NCBI GenBank assembly: GCA_964643615.1
Contig: CAZXTR010000004.1
Coordinates: forward strand, 1-48,258
Direction: 5' to 3'
DNA length: 48,258 nucleotides
Source: an uncultured Lactobacillales bacterium
GTDB lineage: Bacteria > Pseudomonadota > Alphaproteobacteria > CAAHEQ01 > UBA3637
Shown here: positions 10,150 through 48,089 of the stretch, one piece after another
Position numbering within the stretch: the stretch's first letter is position 1
Layout of the letters: each line of letters starts with the position of its first letter
Program-made: the position numbers and the translations under genes
Notes under the pieces: generated by a model
What the model saw: only the letters and a program-made list of their open reading frames with translations
What the model was told of the DNA's origin: nothing
Databases searched by the model: none

Positions 10150-11274
10150 ATGGTTAAATTTATAATAGAAAGAGAAACATTATCGAAATCGTTAGCGCAT
10201 GTACAAAATGTTGTGGAAAGACGTCAAACGATTCCCATTTTGGCCAATGTATTGATAGAAGCAAATCAAGAAAATGGGGGGGGGATTTCCCTTCGTGCGA
10301 CGGATAATGAAATTGAAATTTTTGATAAAGTTTCTGCGCACGTCGAAAAAATAGGTGGTTTTACTGTTTCTGCACATAAATTGTACGATGTCGTTAAAAA
10401 ATTACCCAATGGAGCACAAATAGAATGCACTTTGCAAGAAGAAAGTAGCCAATTGTTGATCAGAGTTGGACGTTCGCGCTTTTCTTTGCCGACAATCCCT
10501 CCAGAAGGGTTTCCTGCGATGGCGTCGGAAATAAGCACTTTTACTTTCCGCTTGACGACTCTTGAATTACAATCTTTGATTGATAGAACGCAATTTGCTG
10601 TTTCGACGGAAGAAGCGCGTTATAACTTGAATGGTATCTTTTTGCATGAAAAAGGTGGAGAAACCAGATTTTTAACAGCTGTTGCAACAGATGGGCATAG
10701 GTTGGCAACTGCTAAAGTAAAAATGCCGGACGGAGCATCAGGAATGCCTGGAGTTATTATTCCTCGCAAAACAATTGGTGAATTAGTGAAGTTGATTGCT
10801 GAGTCAAGCCAAGATGTGGTTGTGTCTGTTTCGGAAAATCAAATTCGGTTCTCGTTTGGGGACATGATTTTATCTTCTCGGTTAATTGATGGAACATATC
10901 CCGATTATGAACGCGTTATTCCTTCGGATAATGATAAGTTTATGGAAGTGGATTCTGTCGCCTTGACTGCGGTTGTTGATCGTGTGGCAGTTATTTCTGA
11001 AAGGTCTCGTGGAATTAAGTTGGTGATGAAAAAAAGTACGTTAAATGTAACAGCGTCTAGCCTGGATGAAGGAAGTGCGGAAGATGAAATAGAGGCGGGC
11101 TATGACGCGGAACAAATTGAAATAGGATTTAATTATCGTTATTTGTTAGATATTTTAGCTCAAATCAAAGGGGGGACAGTTCGCTTTTCTTTGTTGAATG
11201 GGACTTCTCCAGTGGTGATACAAGATGCAAATGATGCTTCTGTGTTGTATGTTTTGATGCCGATGCGTGTGTAA
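10150..11274 (+). CDS. dnaN: DNA polymerase III beta sliding clamp
   Basis: QTIPILANVLIE, LRATD, VATDGHRLA, SRLIDGTYPDY, C-terminal LMPMRV; start set at ATG 10150. Confidence 0.98.
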   Translation: MVKFIIERETLSKSLAHVQNVVERRQTIPILANVLIEANQENGGGISLRATDNEIEIFDKVSAHVEKIGGFTVSAHKLYDVVKKLPNGAQIECTLQEESSQLLIRVGRSRFSLPTIPPEGFPAMASEISTFTFRLTTLELQSLIDRTQFAVSTEEARYNLNGIFLHEKGGETRFLTAVATDGHRLATAKVKMPDGASGMPGVIIPRKTIGELVKLIAESSQDVVVSVSENQIRFSFGDMILSSRLIDGTYPDYERVIPSDNDKFMEVDSVALTAVVDRVAVISERSRGIKLVMKKSTLNVTASSLDEGSAEDEIEAGYDAEQIEIGFNYRYLLDILAQIKGGTVRFSLLNGTSPVVIQDANDASVLYVLMPMRV

Positions 11275-23204: not shown

Positions 23205-23280
23205 GCCGCTGTAACTCAGTTGGTAGAGTAACTGATTCGTAATCAGTAAGTCGCGTGTTCGAGTCACGCCAGCGGCACCA
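23205..23280 (+). tRNA. tRNA-Thr(CGT)
   Basis: Full cloverleaf: acceptor GCCGCTG/CAGCGGC, anticodon loop TTCGTAA, T-loop TTCGAGT, encoded CCA. Confidence 0.97.
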
Positions 23281-23293
23281 TCAATTAACATGT

Positions 23294-24082
23294 TTATTTA
23301 TATACGATTTTTATGCCGCAAGGCCCCGCAATCCGCTTATTTTTCCCATCCGTCCACCAGCTGGTAAATTCAAAGGAGTTGCTGGTCTTTTTGCCCGTCC
23401 GCTTGCCATTCATCTCTTTGACATGCGTATCGCGGGTCGTGTTTGAATAATATTTGGTATGTGTGCCATTGGAAATAATAAAGAGCTGCACGAACTCGAA
23501 AAGGCCACTATCCGCCCAAAAGCTATCGCGCTGATAGCGGTTGATTTGGTTGAACGCCTCGCGTATGGCAACGCCACGCCGTTTCAATTCAATATGAATC
23601 AGCGGTAGGCCATTGACCAAAACAGAAACGTCATAACGGTTTGCGCGGGCACCACCGTCAGTTTCATACTGATTGATAACCTGCAGATGGTTGTTGTGGA
23701 TGTTGTCCTTATCCAGGATGCGGATGTTCTTTGTTTTGCAGCCATCGGTTTTGAGGTTGTAGATGTAATCTTCCTGAACCTTTGTTGTCTTATCGACGAT
23801 GGTATCATTCTTATTGGCAAGATAATTATTGAGAATTTGCGCCCACTCTGTGTCGGAAAATTTATAACCGTTCAAACGCTCCAGCTGTCGCCGCAGGTTG
23901 GCCAAGAGATCATCGTTTGTTTTGATGGACAAATATTCGTATCCATTGTTTTGCAGGATTTTGATAAATTCTTTTTCAAGATTAGCCTCGCTTTGATATT
24001 TGGTCGCGCCGGAACCGATCGGCGTATATTCCGCGACGACCGTACTTTCAGGATGCTGGGCTATGATCTTCTTTTCTGTCAT
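23294..24082 (-). pseudogene. hsdR: Type I restriction subunit R, N-terminal nuclease domain only (3'-truncated)
   Basis: RYDVSVLVNGLPLIHIELK, QINRY; ends after about 252 aa in the non-homologous tail GPCGIKIVYK with no DEAD-box motor. Confidence 0.9.
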
Positions 24083-24645
24083 GCGGCCTCTGGGAATGTA
24101 AGGAGCTTATCGCGGTAATATTTGTACTGCTGGCGGCGCGCCGAGATTTCGGCGGGCAAACCAGCAGAAAGGTCGTTCACCAATGCATCGAATTTATCAA
24201 GGATGGAAACTACGCGCGCTTGCTCCTCCAACGGCGGGAGTGGTACTTCAATTTTCGCCAGATTTTTCGCCGATATTTCAATCACCTTTGCGCCGCGCGC
24301 ATATTTCTTTTTTTGATTAAAGAATAATGGTGTTTGGAATAGATAAGCCATATATTTCGGGTTCTGATCGTGTTTAAAAATCGAAGCATGTCCACCCGTC
24401 GCAATCTCTTCGTCTCCAAGCCACGCCACACATTTGCAAACATCTTCCACATTTTCACTGGTCGTCGCGATAATAAGGTCACCTTTTGCAACCTTCCGTA
24501 GCTTCGCCGCCAGCGCCGGAGAGACAAAAGATTTTGTTTTGTCCGCGAACGTTCCATAGAATGTATAAATTTGGCCATAGTGGATGCACCCGACACCACT
24601 CTCGGCAAAATCTTTTTTCTGCAATCCATTCCCTCTTACGAACAC
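24079..24645 (-). CDS. hsdS: Type I specificity subunit, C-terminal half (TRD2 plus conserved helix)
   Basis: CIHYGQIYT, ARRQQYKYYRDKLLTF; this frame stays open upstream to 24723 ([10 protein letters not shown]). Confidence 0.85.
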   Translation of the reverse strand: MFVRGNGLQKKDFAESGVGCIHYGQIYTFYGTFADKTKSFVSPALAAKLRKVAKGDLIIATTSENVEDVCKCVAWLGDEEIATGGHASIFKHDQNPKYMAYLFQTPLFFNQKKKYARGAKVIEISAKNLAKIEVPLPPLEEQARVVSILDKFDALVNDLSAGLPAEISARRQQYKYYRDKLLTFPEAA

Positions 24646-24676
24646 GCCTATTTCTCCTAATGTTCTCCAGACGACT

Positions 24677-25375
24677 TCACTTGTCTGCTGGGCAACGCTG
24701 TAACTCTCTCCCTCCCTCTCTCTCTAGAATTCCGCGGGTTTCAGCGGATTCACCGAAAGAAAGAAGGCTATCACGATAATAATGATACTGTTTCCTCCTT
24801 GCTTCTAGCTCAGCTTCTAGCTCAGTGAAACTGTCAAGCACCTTAACAATTTCCTGTTGGATAGCGAGATGCGGAACGGGAACAGACAATGAATTCAATG
24901 TCGCCATTCTAATCCCCTTCAAAGTACTTCTTACCGACTGACTTTCATATTGTTTTTTGATATGATCGGAGCCAAGAACGTACATTAAAAATCTTGGGAC
25001 AATAAGGTCTTTTTTGGGTTTTATAAGAAAGACACTCTCGCTGCAATTCCAGTTGTCCGTCGGAATATTCACGATAGCAACTTTTCCAAGAGTTCCGATT
25101 CCAGAGAATAACACGTCGTCTATCTCTAACCCTGAACGCCCCTGGATAATCTTTACAGCTTCATCGTTTATCTTGTCGGTTTTATCATTAAATATTATTT
25201 TTCCGGTCGTGATTTCTTTAACAGTTGCATAGTAATTCGTTGCGTCTTTGGTATTTAAAACAAAATTTTGGCGAGGATTTAAGCCTGTTTTTATAGATAC
25301 GGTTATCTCACCTAATTTTTTAAATTCAACACCATTCGGGCAAAACTCGGCTATCATTCTTTCTATTTTGCTCAT
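24677..25375 (-). CDS. hsdS: Type I specificity subunit, N-terminal half (TRD1 plus conserved helix), ended by a frameshift
   Basis: [59 protein letters not shown]; ATGA overlap with hsdM. Confidence 0.9.
24704..24725. repeat. Interrupted dinucleotide tract, (CT)11 with two T>C substitutions
   Basis: CTCTCTCCCTCCCTCTCTCTCT; lies between TRD1 and TRD2 where the hsdS frame changes. Confidence 0.85.
24801..24824. repeat. 12-bp tandem repeat x2 encoding ELEA-ELEA in the HsdS spacer helix
   Basis: GCTTCTAGCTCA GCTTCTAGCTCA. Confidence 0.85.
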
Positions 25376-26943
25376 TGCTTGCCCCCTTCAATGTCCGAGA
25401 TTATCTCATCGATTTCCTTACGAAGCTTATCTTCACGAGCGACGATTTCCGCAATTTGCGCATTTAACTCCTTTATATCCACAATCTCGCGATTATCCGC
25501 TTGAGCGACATATGTCCCAACGCTGATATTATAATCATACTCGGCGATTTCAGCATTATCCACAAGGCGCGAGAAATGCTCCCGTGTATCTCGTTTTATG
25601 TAGTAATCGAGGATTTTATTAATATTCGCCTCAGTCAGTTTGTTCTTGGCCGCACCGCGTTGGAACTCCGCGCTGGCATCAATAAACAGGGTTTTATTAT
25701 CCGCCTTGTTCTTCTTCAATACCAAAATGCACGTCGCTATCGTTGGCCCAAAGAACAAATCCGGCGGCAGCTGTATCACGCAATCAACATAATTGTTATC
25801 GACGAGATATTTGCGGATTTTCTGTTCCGCGCCAGCACGATACATAATGCCGGGGAAGCAAACAATCGCCGCCGTTCCGTTCGTCGCCAACCAGGAAAGC
25901 ATATGCATGACGAACGCCATGTCCGCCTTTGATTTCGGCGCCAGGACTCCGGCTGGCGTAAATCTTTCGTCATTGATCAATATCGGATTGTTGTCTCCAT
26001 CCCATTTTATTGAATAGGGCGGATTGGAAACGATAGCTTCAAACGGTTCGTCGTCCCAATGTTTCGGCTCGGTCAGGGTATTCCCGTGTGCAATATCAAA
26101 CTGCTCGTAATTGATATCATGCAGGAACATATTGATACGGCAGAGATTATATGTCGTGATGTTGATTTCCTGTCCATAAAAACCATTACGGACATTTTCC
26201 TTCCCAAGGATTTTTGCGAATTTCAAAAGAAGCGAACCGGAACCACAGGCGGGATCATAAACTTTATTAACATCGGTCTTACCAGCCACCGCGATACGGG
26301 CCACCAATTCGCTGACTTCCTGCGGGGTGAAAAATTCGCCGCCGCTTTTTCCGGCGTTGGCGGCGTACATGGTCATCAAGAATTCATAAGCATCGCCGAA
26401 TACGTCAATCGTGTTGTCTCCGTAATTTCCGAGCTGCAAATCACCAATGGCGTTCATCAGCTTTACCAGCAACTCATTGCGTTTTTGCACCGTCGCGCCC
26501 AGCTTGTTTGAATTCACATCGATATCGTCAAACAGGCCTGCCATACTGTTTTCGCTGGCTGTTCCCTTGGCGGAATTTTCAATGTTGCCAAACACCTTTT
26601 CGAGGGTTTCATTTAGGTTGGCATCCGTCGCGGCGGATTTCCGGACATTTTCGAACAGCTCGCTGGGATAGACAAAAAAGCCTTTGTCTTCCAAGATGTC
26701 GTCACGGCCATATTCGGCTTGTTCGTCCGAGAGCCGGGCATAATCAAAATCTTTTTCACCGGCTTCGGCCTGTTTCGCATTGATATAGGATGCCAAATTT
26801 TCAGAGATAAAACGGTAGAACAGCATTCCAAGAACGTATTGCTTGAAGTCCCAGCCGTCCACTGATCCGCGCAGATCGTTCGCGATCCGCCAGATCGTGG
26901 AGTGAAGCGCCGCCCGTTCCTGTTCTTTTTTATTATCTGCCAT
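25372..26943 (-). CDS. hsdM: Type I DNA methyltransferase subunit M (m6A)
   Basis: [21 protein letters not shown] (motif I), NPPY (motif IV); start at ATG 26943 after GGAG. Confidence 0.98.
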
Positions 26944-27103
26944 TTCCTGTTCTCCTTCGGCCACTATACTCAATTTTATTCAAAAATACCAGAAAATTTT
27001 CAGCGTATTGCCTTTAAGAGTGAGATTTTATTCTAAGCGCCAGCCTTGTGCCAAGGGCGGCATCTAGAACGATAGATTTTGATTGATATTTAAAGGAATA
27101 TAG

Positions 27104-30302: not shown

Positions 30303-32042
30303 ATGAGAAAAATTTTGTTGTCAACATTAGTTTATTTTTGTTTTTCCTTTACTTTGCAAGCACAACAAGTGGATATTTCAACTATATCAGAAAAAGAAGT
30401 TGTTGATGCATCTGTTAAAGTTATAACAGAGTCAACGTCACCTAACGTGTCTGTTGCTCCTCTCGTTGGCACAGAAGGGGAAAATACTCTTATAGGAAAA
30501 GCGATTAATCCTGTCGAGCTCCCTATAGTACAAACAACACCATTAACGTTAGAAAACAATTTTGTGGCAAATTTGCCAAGAGATGTTCAAAAAGAACAAA
30601 CTTTAATCAATTTGTATAAAAATGTCATATATGCTCCAGCATTGATTGATTTAACAAAGGATTTTAAATTTGAAAAAGACTTTGTTATTACGTCAATCGA
30701 AGGAGGATACGAGATTGAAGTGCCTCAGGCGTCTTTTTTCGTTGGGGAAGAAAAGATTTCTTTTCCTGCACAGAAAAGTGTACTTTCTATGGTTGAATCT
30801 AATGGTCTAACCTACCAAATTATGTGGAACGATTTATCGGGATATAAGCCACTTTTGGGATATCTAGCAAACCGTTCGAATATAAAAATGGATACTTTCC
30901 AAGCACAAGTAGATTTAAATCCATCGTTAAATTTTATTACAAAAGAATCAGCTTCTTCTTCTAATATAGTTTTTTCTGGAGTTTCTGAAGCACAAAAAAA
31001 TTCAGAATTGTTATCTATTAAAGGTATCTCTGCAGAGTCTTCCATTACACCAGATTTAGTAAGAAAGGAACTTGGCTATCTTGCGGAGTATAAAATAGAC
31101 AGATTAAAAGTAATATCTCCTTATGGTGAGGTAAGTTTCGACAATATGTTTTCCTTTGTCCAATGTTCGAATATACCGATAGATATATGGGAAGCGTGGA
31201 TGAAAATGAACCCTTCAATAGTGCCAGCTTTGAACGCCATTTTTTCTTTTAAGATTTCCAAATTAAAAATAGATTCTGTGTTTGTGCCGTTGTCCAAAAT
31301 TGTTTCGGATATTGAATTTTTCATCAATACGGTAAAAATAAATACATATGGAGATATAAGCCTTGACGCTCGTCTTATATGGGATATAACGAAAGAAGGA
31401 TCAACTCCGATAAAGCTTATTCCTGACACATTACTTCCCAAAAAGATAGTGGCAAACATCAATATCTCTGGAGTAAAGGGCGCACTTGTGACGGAGCTTA
31501 TTGCGTTACAGAAAAAAGACAAAGAAGTTAATGATTCTCTAGCAAAAGTTCAAGAAATAAATGGAGAACAAGTAACCACTTCAATGAGTCAAGGCCAAAA
31601 GGAAGAAGAAATAGCGCGAAAACTTTTAGAAACTCTTCAATTGACTATTAACGAATTGTATATTGAAAATGATAATTGGGATGTGTCTTTGGAAGGAATT
31701 TTTAAAGGTCGAAATTTATCGTTTAGGGGGCCATTAACCATTACGAACTTTGATTTTTTATCTAAAGAAACAGAAAAGTTTATGGCGCAAACGAACCCCG
31801 ATGGTACGGTAACACAATCTCCTTCTCTATTAGAAGTTTTGAGGCCTTATCTTGCTTCGGAGAGGCGTGGAAAAAATGCCAAGGGACTACCTATGGATAC
31901 ATTTGAATTACAAGCAAGTAATGAAGGGTTTTTGATTAATGGCTATTTGTTTGGGGAGCCAATTAATGATGAAAAAAAGCAGTCCTCTGGACAACAAGAA
32001 CTTGCTCCTGTCGTTGATGATGCAAGTCCAAAAAAGGAATAA
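30303..32042 (+). CDS. Large exported hypothetical protein, beta-rich, possibly YdgA/DUF945-like
   Basis: Signal peptide ending LQA; C-terminal G.LTITNFD.L ... FLINGYLF pattern. Confidence 0.7.
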   Translation: MRKILLSTLVYFCFSFTLQAQQVDISTISEKEVVDASVKVITESTSPNVSVAPLVGTEGENTLIGKAINPVELPIVQTTPLTLENNFVANLPRDVQKEQTLINLYKNVIYAPALIDLTKDFKFEKDFVITSIEGGYEIEVPQASFFVGEEKISFPAQKSVLSMVESNGLTYQIMWNDLSGYKPLLGYLANRSNIKMDTFQAQVDLNPSLNFITKESASSSNIVFSGVSEAQKNSELLSIKGISAESSITPDLVRKELGYLAEYKIDRLKVISPYGEVSFDNMFSFVQCSNIPIDIWEAWMKMNPSIVPALNAIFSFKISKLKIDSVFVPLSKIVSDIEFFINTVKINTYGDISLDARLIWDITKEGSTPIKLIPDTLLPKKIVANINISGVKGALVTELIALQKKDKEVNDSLAKVQEINGEQVTTSMSQGQKEEEIARKLLETLQLTINELYIENDNWDVSLEGIFKGRNLSFRGPLTITNFDFLSKETEKFMAQTNPDGTVTQSPSLLEVLRPYLASERRGKNAKGLPMDTFELQASNEGFLINGYLFGEPINDEKKQSSGQQELAPVVDDASPKKE

Positions 32043-46555: not shown

Positions 46556-47974
46556 TTACCAACCGAGTGTAACGCCACCTTTAACAATTGTGCTTTTTTC
46601 ACCACCATAAGAAGCTCCAACGTTCAACAAAACATTGTCATTGATATAATGAAAACCACCAACCGCAAGGCCAGCTTTGTTACGATAAGCGCCTGTACCT
46701 AAAGAAATTTGAGTGCCTCCTGTAGCACGCGCATTGGGAACCAACCCAGATAATGCTGCAACCGAAGCAAACCCACCACGAACTTTGTCATCTAAATCGT
46801 CGACTTGACGCTCGACATTTTCGACGCCAGTGTTTAAACTTTGTAAGTTGCTTGTAACACTACCACCTGTAGATAAATATTTACCACTGATAGCGCTTCT
46901 GTCGCCGATAGCATCATCTAAAGCAGATAAATGGCTGGAAACGGTATCATTAAAAGCGTTTGTGTTTTCTGCCAAGTTTCCTTTGTAATTTGCGCCACGA
47001 GAAGCTGCTAATCCACCAATTTGGCCAAGACGATGGTCTAGTGCACCGAGGTGTGCAGAAATGGTCGCTCCGCTATAGGCTAGATTTCCCCTTGTGGTAT
47101 CATCATCTCCAAAATAGCTTGGATGGCCAATTTCATCTCGTAATTTTGCAACTTCAGTTTGAAGAGGATCAATAGCTTTGTTTGCTGTCCCCGTTACAAA
47201 AGATTCCAAAGATGAGTTCTTGTATTGAGCTGCTGTGATATTACCAGCTGCAACTGCTGCGCGTGCATCAAAAGTATCATTTAAATCTTCAATACCATCG
47301 TTAAGGGCCTGCAAGTTAGTGACGACATTTGCTCCAGCTGTTAAATTGTCGCCGTTCAAAGTGCTTCTGTTGCCAATAGAAGTATCTAATGCCGTTAAGT
47401 GGTTAGCAACACTTGTACGACCAGAATATTTACTTCTATCTTCTTGATCTAAGTTTCCTTCGGTGGCCATTTCATGAATTTGCCCGATAGAAGAATCAAG
47501 CCCGCTCAAGTGCGCTGAGATAGTTGCTCCGCTATAAGCAAGGTTTGTTTTGGATAAATCATCATTCCCAAGGGTAGAAGGATGTCCTAATTGATCTCCT
47601 AGGGTTTTAATATCTTCTGTTTGCTGAGTATCAGAAGATGCTAAATCTTGAATAGAACTTTTGTTATGGTCTGCCAAGATTTCCAAATCATTGATGTCTG
47701 TATTTTGCGCTGAATCTGATATTTGTAATGCTGCGATTTGGTCTTCTATAGAGATTGTAAGTCGAGCTGGGTCGACCCCAGGGGTGGCTACTAATATCTG
47801 AGAAGGGACTGTGGTAGTCTTGTTTGATGTTGTTGTCCCGTAATTAACAAGAACGACTTCTGCGCGAGATTGCGATGCAAAAAGCAACGAAAAAACAGCG
47901 ACTCCAAAAAAAGCACTTTTTTTAACCGTGAAAAGTCCTCTAAAAGATTTGTTCAGTAAATTCGAGTACATCAT
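46556..47974 (-). CDS. Trimeric autotransporter adhesin (YadA-like anchor)
   Basis: C-terminal GGFASVAALSGL...ISLGTGAYRNKAGLAVG...KGGVTLGW; signal peptide; start at ATG 47974 after AAAGGA (47989 also possible). Confidence 0.9.
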   Translation of the reverse strand: MMYSNLLNKSFRGLFTVKKSAFFGVAVFSLLFASQSRAEVVLVNYGTTTSNKTTTVPSQILVATPGVDPARLTISIEDQIAALQISDSAQNTDINDLEILADHNKSSIQDLASSDTQQTEDIKTLGDQLGHPSTLGNDDLSKTNLAYSGATISAHLSGLDSSIGQIHEMATEGNLDQEDRSKYSGRTSVANHLTALDTSIGNRSTLNGDNLTAGANVVTNLQALNDGIEDLNDTFDARAAVAAGNITAAQYKNSSLESFVTGTANKAIDPLQTEVAKLRDEIGHPSYFGDDDTTRGNLAYSGATISAHLGALDHRLGQIGGLAASRGANYKGNLAENTNAFNDTVSSHLSALDDAIGDRSAISGKYLSTGGSVTSNLQSLNTGVENVERQVDDLDDKVRGGFASVAALSGLVPNARATGGTQISLGTGAYRNKAGLAVGGFHYINDNVLLNVGASYGGEKSTIVKGGVTLGW

Positions 47975-48089
47975 TTTTAATCCTTTCATTAAAATTTGTA
48001 CGTTTATCTCTTTTTAAAGAGGAAAAACAGTCTCGATTTAACGGGTTGTATTTTGTCATTTTCAATTTGAAAATAACTCATTATTGCAG

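Follow-up and report, generated by a model that had tools for sequence, protein, structure and literature searches.

An interrupted AG repeat between the two recognition domains of a split type IC hsdS gene in an uncultured alphaproteobacterium

The first 48,258 nt of contig CAZXTR010000004.1 (assembly GCA_964643615.1, positions 1 to 48,258; hereafter the window) from an uncultured low-GC alphaproteobacterium carry on the minus strand a type I restriction-modification operon in the order hsdM-hsdS-hsdR, in which the specificity gene hsdS is divided by a frame change lying in or beside an imperfect AG repeat between the regions coding for its two target recognition domains (TRD1 and TRD2). With moderate confidence, we regard the locus as a decayed member of the class of hsdS genes with inter-TRD repeats, which became fixed, or nearly so, in the half-HsdS phase, with a methylase that is probably still workable with a homodimeric half-subunit.

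The 5′ half of hsdS (24677–25375, minus strand) encodes a product of 232 aa consisting of TRD1, the complete central conserved helix and an out-of-frame tail of 26 aa, its frame being closed after 232 codons by a TGA at 24677–24679. The 3′ half (24079–24726, minus strand), encoding TRD2 and the C-terminal conserved helix, is open from a TAG at 24724–24726 to the stop at 24079–24081, with no stop in 215 codons. Both halves were recognized as Methylase_S (E-values of 4.9e-19 and 7.3e-14 for the 5′ and the 3′ half, respectively) and cross-matched each other at 33% identity (E about 3e-11). The central conserved region of the 5′ half aligned to the EcoR124 HsdS (7bst_A) and the 3′ half to residues 199–398 of the EcoR124 protein. 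The TRD2 half kept all invariant columns of the HsdS family, and no further stops or frameshifts were present in TRD1, TRD2 or the hsdR remnant. An initial annotation, made from the sequence alone, had bounded the frame change by the same TAG and TGA codons and had described the truncated product as a complete half-subunit ending in the conserved helix; its coordinates and quoted sequences were all correct, and the half-subunit is complete as described, apart from the added 26-aa tail.

The repeat occupies positions 24704–24725 and reads on the minus strand, from 24725 to 24704, AGAGAGAGAGGGAGGGAGAGAG, i.e., 11 dinucleotide units (22 nt) with two A→G interruptions. It can be written as (AG)5 GG AG GG (AG)3 or as (AG)5(GGAG)2(AG)2, and the longest pure run is the (AG)5 at 24716–24725, in agreement with the twice-substituted (AG)11 tract reported initially. 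Addition of one AG in silico reproduced the predicted continuous HsdS of 432 aa. Changes of +2, −4 or −1 nt all resulted in a full HsdS of 430–432 aa, while 0, −2, +4 or +1 nt resulted in a truncated HsdS of 232–240 aa; the single slippage events restoring the frame include the gain of an AG in either run and the loss of GGAG, of two AG or of one G.

The AG tract is not a chance feature, since a match to the (AG)11 22-mer with up to three mismatches occurred once in the window and in none of 100 dinucleotide-preserving shuffles. No other dinucleotide repeat of at least five units exists in the 48 kb; about 15% of shuffles would contain a bare (AG)5-type run somewhere. Contigs from two other sequencing runs (SRR10769903 and SRR32367555) showed 100% identity with the window along 2965 and 1308 bases, respectively, including the tract, and the identical 232-aa product was called in both assemblies. 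At its start (L001:1–22), the SRR10769903 contig differed from the window in the 22 bases just upstream of the conserved hsdM motif DPACGSG, most likely due to an assembly join with another methyltransferase gene of that sample.

The methylase gene is intact. The hsdM frame (25372–26973, minus strand) is open from a TTG at 26973, with a likely start at the ATG at 26943 giving a protein of 523 aa. It contained the Pfam domains N6_Mtase (E 3.7e-115) and HsdM_N and matched the M protein of EcoR124II over its full length (7bst_D, E 5.4e-190; query residues 8–520 against chain residues 7–515). The best matches in the genome collection, from Caedibacter varicaedens and a Deferribacterales bacterium, were 82–83% identical, and proteins at 73–83% identity were scattered over many phyla, so that HsdM similarity is uninformative about the host. 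Searches for exact copies of HsdM, made with each of the two start codons, matched no record.

The restriction gene, on the other hand, is reduced to an open reading frame (ORF) of 262 aa (23294–24082, minus strand) with HSDR_N as the sole Pfam domain. This remnant was 60% identical to residues 1–253 of a complete 1039-aa HsdR, the homology ending at window position 23330 with no further hsdR pieces in the window, and matched residues 12–218 of the EcoR124 HsdR (2w00, 1038 aa). The HsdR of a related locus (L083, 1039 aa) has all domains. Of a complete HsdR with its nuclease, motor and EcoR124_C parts, residues 1–253 alone are left: about 786 of the 1039 codons are lost and the motor and C-terminal domains are deleted. 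With about three quarters of the gene gone restriction is lost, as the initial annotation had stated. The closest full-length HsdS homologue (P0002, 69–72% identity) sits in an hsdM-hsdS-hsdR operon whose 1039-aa HsdR has DEAD/ResIII and EcoR124_C domains. Since HsdM, the central and C-terminal conserved regions of HsdS (E 9e-31 against 7bst_A) and the HsdR N-terminus match EcoR124 proteins, and the HsdR of the relative has the EcoR124_C domain, the locus is, by homology, a remnant of a type IC (EcoR124-family) system comprising the methylase module only.

The position of the tract was compared with that of repeats in related systems, for which 80 loci were fetched from genomes via HsdM and 80 from metagenomes via the fused HsdS. 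Loci with a recognizable conserved-region motif, 146 in all, were counted, a linker repeat being defined as one within 130 nt after the end of a conserved region and reaching the published thresholds (mononucleotides, at least 9; dinucleotides, at least 5 units; units of four or more nucleotides whose length is not divisible by three, at least 3). Such repeats were found in 21 of the 146 loci (about 14%, an approximate figure because the sample of loci is non-random and partly redundant), at a density about 15 times that elsewhere in the same loci. Repeats of the same type as in the window were represented by (GA)12 in a member of the Bacteriovoracaceae (L010:7855–7878), (GA)6 in Candidatus Harrisonbacteria (L018:8247–8258) and in L009:9693–9704, and (GA)7 in L160:3156–3169. 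The (ACAG)/(GACA) class, with 7–12 units and with 8–12 in the ACAG tracts, included (ACAG)12 in the complete genome of Candidatus Velamenicoccus archaeovorus LiM (NZ_CP019384.1) from the Omnitrophota (L032:8144–8191), L050 (8144–8175), L097 (603–638) and L142, and the (AAGC)/(GCAA) class, with 9–21 units and with 10–16 in the GCAA tracts, included (AAGC)21 in Candidatus Omnitrophota (L021:8145–8228), L130, L131, L122 (586–625) and L163 (3137–3200). Eight loci had G9–G12 or C9 tracts. The repeat-bearing relatives belonged to the Omnitrophota, Patescibacteria, Planctomycetota (Planctomycetales) and Bacteriovoracaceae or came from gut and bioreactor metagenomes.

Both phases were present among these relatives. 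In L021 and L032 hsdS is out of frame as in the window, yet hsdR is intact (1040–1051 aa), while most other repeat-bearing genes are in frame, with the repeat translated as TERER..., TDRQTDRQ... or SKQASKQA... Moreover, tract length differed between related alleles with 96–100% identical sequence upstream of the tract: G12 in L138 versus G9 in L144, in which both flanks were 100% identical, 9 units in L130 (3691–3726) versus 14 in L131 (3751–3806), and 12 units in L010 versus 6 in L018. Given the repeats of the relatives at this site and the length differences between nearly identical alleles, the linker is, as judged from these comparisons, a recurrent and dynamic repeat site in the HsdS family, with GA/AG among its usual repeat types. 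In the relatives whose hsdR is intact, hsdR translation might likewise be affected by the repeat phase, through lost coupling, since the hsdS stop and the hsdR start overlap in the window and similar frame overlaps occur in the relatives.

Many strong HsdS matches were 610–670 aa long (P0001, P0004, P0005 and others), and L066 and L074 contained ORFs of 640–657 aa. A length of about 640 aa is the size expected for proteins with three TRDs, i.e., putative "extended" HsdS, a form described for Mannheimia and Fusobacterium. A (GACA)7 repeat located after the C-terminal conserved region in L142 (2374–2401) could link to a third TRD.

The AlphaFold model of the fused HsdS had a mean predicted local distance difference test score of 84 and matched solved HsdS structures (HsdS fold). 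Its sole segment scoring below 50, residues 209–233, lies between the central helix (H170–206) and TRD2 and covers the tract-encoded residues. In the closest homologues the linker is short, with a ...YYRxxLLxF motif running almost directly into TRD2, whereas the hsdS of the window has about 50 extra nt in the linker, with the tract within them, bringing the linker length near the 90th percentile of the family. According to alignment and model, the tract sits in the inter-TRD linker, which is predicted to be disordered.

There was no sign of variation in this copy. The tract length was the same in all available assemblies, and neither a full-length nor a variant allele within 90% identity was found among about 15 billion proteins. 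The 90%-identity clusters of both half-proteins contained no variant except an alternative start call. As the best full-length match to the fused HsdS in 5.8 billion clusters was only 69% identical, there is no allele in the ON state on record. A gapped DNA pattern of both tract flanks with 8–38 nt between them, searched against metagenome contigs, gave no match and no length variant. The proposed toggling between TRD1-TRD1 and TRD1-TRD2 specificities therefore stands in part: the architecture, the frame potential in silico and the presence of relatives in both frames are in its favor, while the interrupted tract, the identical assemblies and the lack of a variant allele in the searched collections speak against current switching.

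These observations can be arranged into the following scenario. An EcoR124-family hsdM-hsdS-hsdR island would have been acquired horizontally and placed beside a tRNA-Thr gene, after which a deletion would have taken about three quarters of hsdR, abolishing restriction and leaving hsdM intact. The length of the inter-TRD tract would decide whether the ribosomes read into TRD2 or stop after TRD1. At the present length a half-HsdS would be produced, containing TRD1 and the dimerization helix and, by type IC precedent, pairing with itself; together with HsdM, such a homodimer would act as a methylase with a palindromic bipartite site. The full TRD1-TRD2 subunit, with an asymmetric site, would return if the tract gained one AG or lost one GGAG, two AG or one G. 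Two A→G substitutions would have eroded the tract to five pure units, for which reason switching is probably rare or frozen in the half-subunit state.

Several points weigh against this scenario. The apparent stability of the tract is that seen in the consensus of three datasets at most, and one of these is possibly the source of the window itself. The pure run is exactly at the dinucleotide threshold of 5 units, i.e., at the published minimum, so that the 11-unit, twice interrupted tract qualifies as phase-variable only marginally; appreciable switching may still be possible, especially if the organism is without mismatch repair. As no close relative sharing this linker turned up, the tract could be local in origin instead of being a decayed longer repeat. 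The expression and activity of HsdM with the half-HsdS are presumed, and the frameshifted 26-aa tail might hinder dimerization.

The alternatives are taken here in decreasing order of probability. Plain gene decay, in which the island became useless after the hsdR deletion, the hsdS frameshift is one more lesion, nothing is functional and the tract is a mutational hotspot or a historical trace, is unlikely. With hsdR destroyed, selection on the island must be relaxed, at least as a restriction system, and the shortage of about 786 of 1039 hsdR codons, the foreign DNA (45% GC in the island, 23294–26973, versus 36.7% in the remaining window), the interruptions, as expected for a repeat no longer selected, and the single known allele all fit with decay. 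What fits poorly is a full-length hsdM with all domains, whose product aligns end to end with the EcoR124 HsdM, the lack of other stops or frameshifts in TRD1, TRD2 and the hsdR remnant, and the placement of the lone hsdS lesion exactly where truncation of a type IC subunit leaves a working half (PMC3874165).

An active phasevarion, with a useful slippage rate, a methylome alternating between palindromic TRD1-TRD1 and asymmetric TRD1-TRD2 sites and a methylase kept as an epigenetic regulator, seems doubtful, and a regulon controlled by a switch at this locus can only be conjectured. The two interruptions leaving just five pure units, the same tract in every assembly, the failure to find an ON allele or a 90%-identity variant among about 15 billion proteins or a length variant in the metagenome contigs, and, as weaker evidence, the unbroken passage of both run-level contigs across the tract all argue against it. 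Nevertheless, the architecture is the same as in the described class, with (AG)5 reaching the threshold of Atack et al. (PMC7383803), several different single slippages would restore the frame, hsdM and TRD2 remained intact despite the loss of hsdR, and both phases exist among the relatives.

A variant of retention, which we consider rather improbable, is that the methylase module was kept as an epigenetic device after the loss of restriction, either with slow composite AG/GGAG switching between the full HsdS and two truncated forms with different tails, or with both halves translated, in which case one locus would provide as many as three specificities simultaneously (TRD1-TRD1, TRD2-TRD2 and TRD1-TRD2).

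It is very unlikely that the split gene works as a whole without switching, with TRD2 re-initiated at the GTG at 24645 and the halves assembling into a complex of asymmetric TRD1-TRD2 specificity, possibly accompanied by both homodimers. A possible internal restart (24643–24658, minus strand) is formed by AGGAG at 24654–24658, an 8-nt spacer and GTG at 24643–24645 and is located 31 nt after the TRD1 stop; the resulting 188-aa TRD2 ORF was called by gene callers in the assemblies from other sequencing runs, and co-expressed half genes of EcoDXXI regain wild-type activity (PMC3874165). However, the AGGAG may be incidental because it lies within the conserved LGEIG codons, the 188-aa product is short of the first approximately 11 conserved residues of TRD2, and the second ORF of NgoAV gives no active protein (PMC9577141).

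Finally, a sequencing or assembly error hiding a full-length hsdS, the condition under which the initial annotation would have abandoned its proposal, can practically be dismissed: although repeats are error-prone and a miscall of 1 or 2 nt would give the same picture, two other run assemblies had the identical sequence across the tract and the same 232-aa product, and short reads have no particular difficulty with an interrupted dinucleotide tract of 22 nt.

We set aside both programmed ribosomal frameshifting and slippage during transcription at the tract, as there is no slippery heptamer; AG dinucleotide tracts are not known to signal either process. An inverting switch of the shufflon type was likewise rejected, as there is no second hsdS copy in the window and the annotated neighbors are housekeeping genes with no recombinase among them.

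The genes of the operon are joined by 4-nt stop/start overlaps at 25372–25375 (hsdM/hsdS) and 24079–24082 (hsdS/hsdR). The hsdM-hsdS-hsdR order is typical of type IC and was also found in the relatives. A promoter-like site upstream of hsdM (27025–27054, minus strand; TTGGCA-18-TAAAAT, 10 of 12 consensus matches) is a consensus match alone and is given no functional weight. A tRNA-Thr (CGT) gene (23205–23280, plus strand) lies 13 nt beyond the hsdR remnant and is likely an insertion or deletion boundary of the type I island; with the endpoint of the hsdR deletion adjoining it, the arrangement suggests an integration at tRNA-Thr (CGT) followed by the deletion. The surroundings of the island consist of core chromosomal genes (dnaX, dnaN, recF, gyrB, uvrB, rpsD, psd/pssA and mrdA), and the GyrB of the window was at most 85% identical to proteins of uncultured Alphaproteobacteria, which places the host no more closely than as an uncultured alphaproteobacterium.

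Three other features of the window were recorded. A G9 homopolymer at 10276–10284 lies in frame within the essential gene dnaN, in a genome of 37% GC, and reaches phase-variation length thresholds; it probably represents just Gly codons, although this is an odd location for such a tract. The C-terminus of an ORF of 477 aa (46556–47989, minus strand) gave a weak match to a trimeric autotransporter anchor of the YadA type, and an ORF of 579 aa (30303–32042, plus strand) was without a match to any NCBIfam family. Surface proteins of this kind may hint at a host-associated lifestyle.

The design of the switch has already been published, and the locus in the window is a further, degenerate example and the weakest kind of member, with modest consequences. 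It calls for caution in annotation: an hsdS of type IC that is divided within the inter-TRD linker should not be taken for a pseudogene as a matter of course. Long linker repeats in about one in seven of the HsdS-family relatives suggest that repeat-driven type I specificity switching is common well beyond the host-adapted pathogens on which phasevarion research has mainly centered. If the methylase is active without HsdR, the locus would represent a naturally occurring type I system pared down to an orphan methyltransferase whose specificity subunit is homodimeric.

Among known systems, the closest general parallel is provided by the REBASE survey of Atack et al. (2019), according to which hsdS repeats are always located between the two TRDs, with a predicted switch between a full-length and a truncated, dimerizing HsdS (PMC7383803). 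The survey applied a dinucleotide threshold of at least 5 units, 7.8% of hsdS genes qualified as repeat-bearing, and AG[n] tracts in the Mycoplasmataceae and GCAA[7–29] in Haemophilus parasuis were listed (PMC7383803). Thus the same architecture, AG[n] tracts included, had been given there as a general rule, and the novelty implied by the initial annotation was overstated. Similar to the surveyed genes, the repeat in the window lies between the TRD-coding regions, immediately downstream of the coiled-coil or TAEL-like region, has a unit not divisible by three and predicts the same full-length versus truncated-dimerizing outcome. Unlike them, the tract is of minimum length and interrupted, restriction is lost, and its bearer, an uncultured alphaproteobacterium from an environmental or host-associated habitat, is not a characterized pathogen.

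The experimental precedent for repeat-driven switching, correctly invoked in the initial annotation, is the type IC system NgoAV of Neisseria gonorrhoeae FA1090, in which hsdS is interrupted at a poly-G tract, giving hsdS1 (208 of 410 aa) and hsdS2, the ORF of which yields no active protein. Deletion of a single G joins the two, and the recognized site shifts from GCAN8TGC (truncated) to GCAN7STCA (fused) (PMC9577141). Both loci have a repeat-associated frameshift between the TRDs, a first ORF that codes for an entire half-subunit, 232 of 432 aa in the window against 208 of 410 aa in NgoAV, and the potential for fusion by a single slippage event; the change of specificity was shown in NgoAV and is predicted for the window. 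The differences are an interrupted dinucleotide repeat instead of a homopolymer, the deletion of hsdR and the lack of between-isolate length variation seen in the window tract, in contrast to the distribution of G numbers among gonococcal genomes.

The homodimerization of type IC half-subunits on palindromes, also cited initially, is likewise well founded: besides NgoAV (PMC9577141), the EcoR124I Δ50 and EcoDXXI ΔC and ΔN half-subunits form active homodimers recognizing interrupted palindromes (GAA N7 TTC and TCA N8 TGA), and co-expression of the N- and C-terminal half genes of EcoDXXI restores the wild-type activity and specificity (PMC3874165). Because halves of this type come together in trans, the split state of the window need not abolish the asymmetric TRD1-TRD2 specificity. 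As in these engineered halves, truncation after the central conserved helix in the window leaves TRD1 and the dimerization helix; theirs, however, resulted from a deletion or a Tn5 insertion and had demonstrated activity, whereas the truncation in the window is linked to a repeat and its product is presumed to be active. A further likeness to EcoR124I and EcoR124II is a 12-bp tandem repeat of 2.1 copies (24801–24825, minus strand), encoding ELEA-ELEA in the same central helix. Family members carry 2, 3 or 4 copies of it (roughly 41, 53 and 20 loci, respectively), and it is the counterpart of the EcoR124 TAEL repeat, whose copy number sets the spacer length (PMC3874165, PMC7383803), and a second, in-frame, spacer-setting length polymorphism that is also widespread in the family. 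Unlike the AG tract, the TAEL repeat of EcoR124 alters the spacer length in frame without truncating the protein, and it is a separate element.

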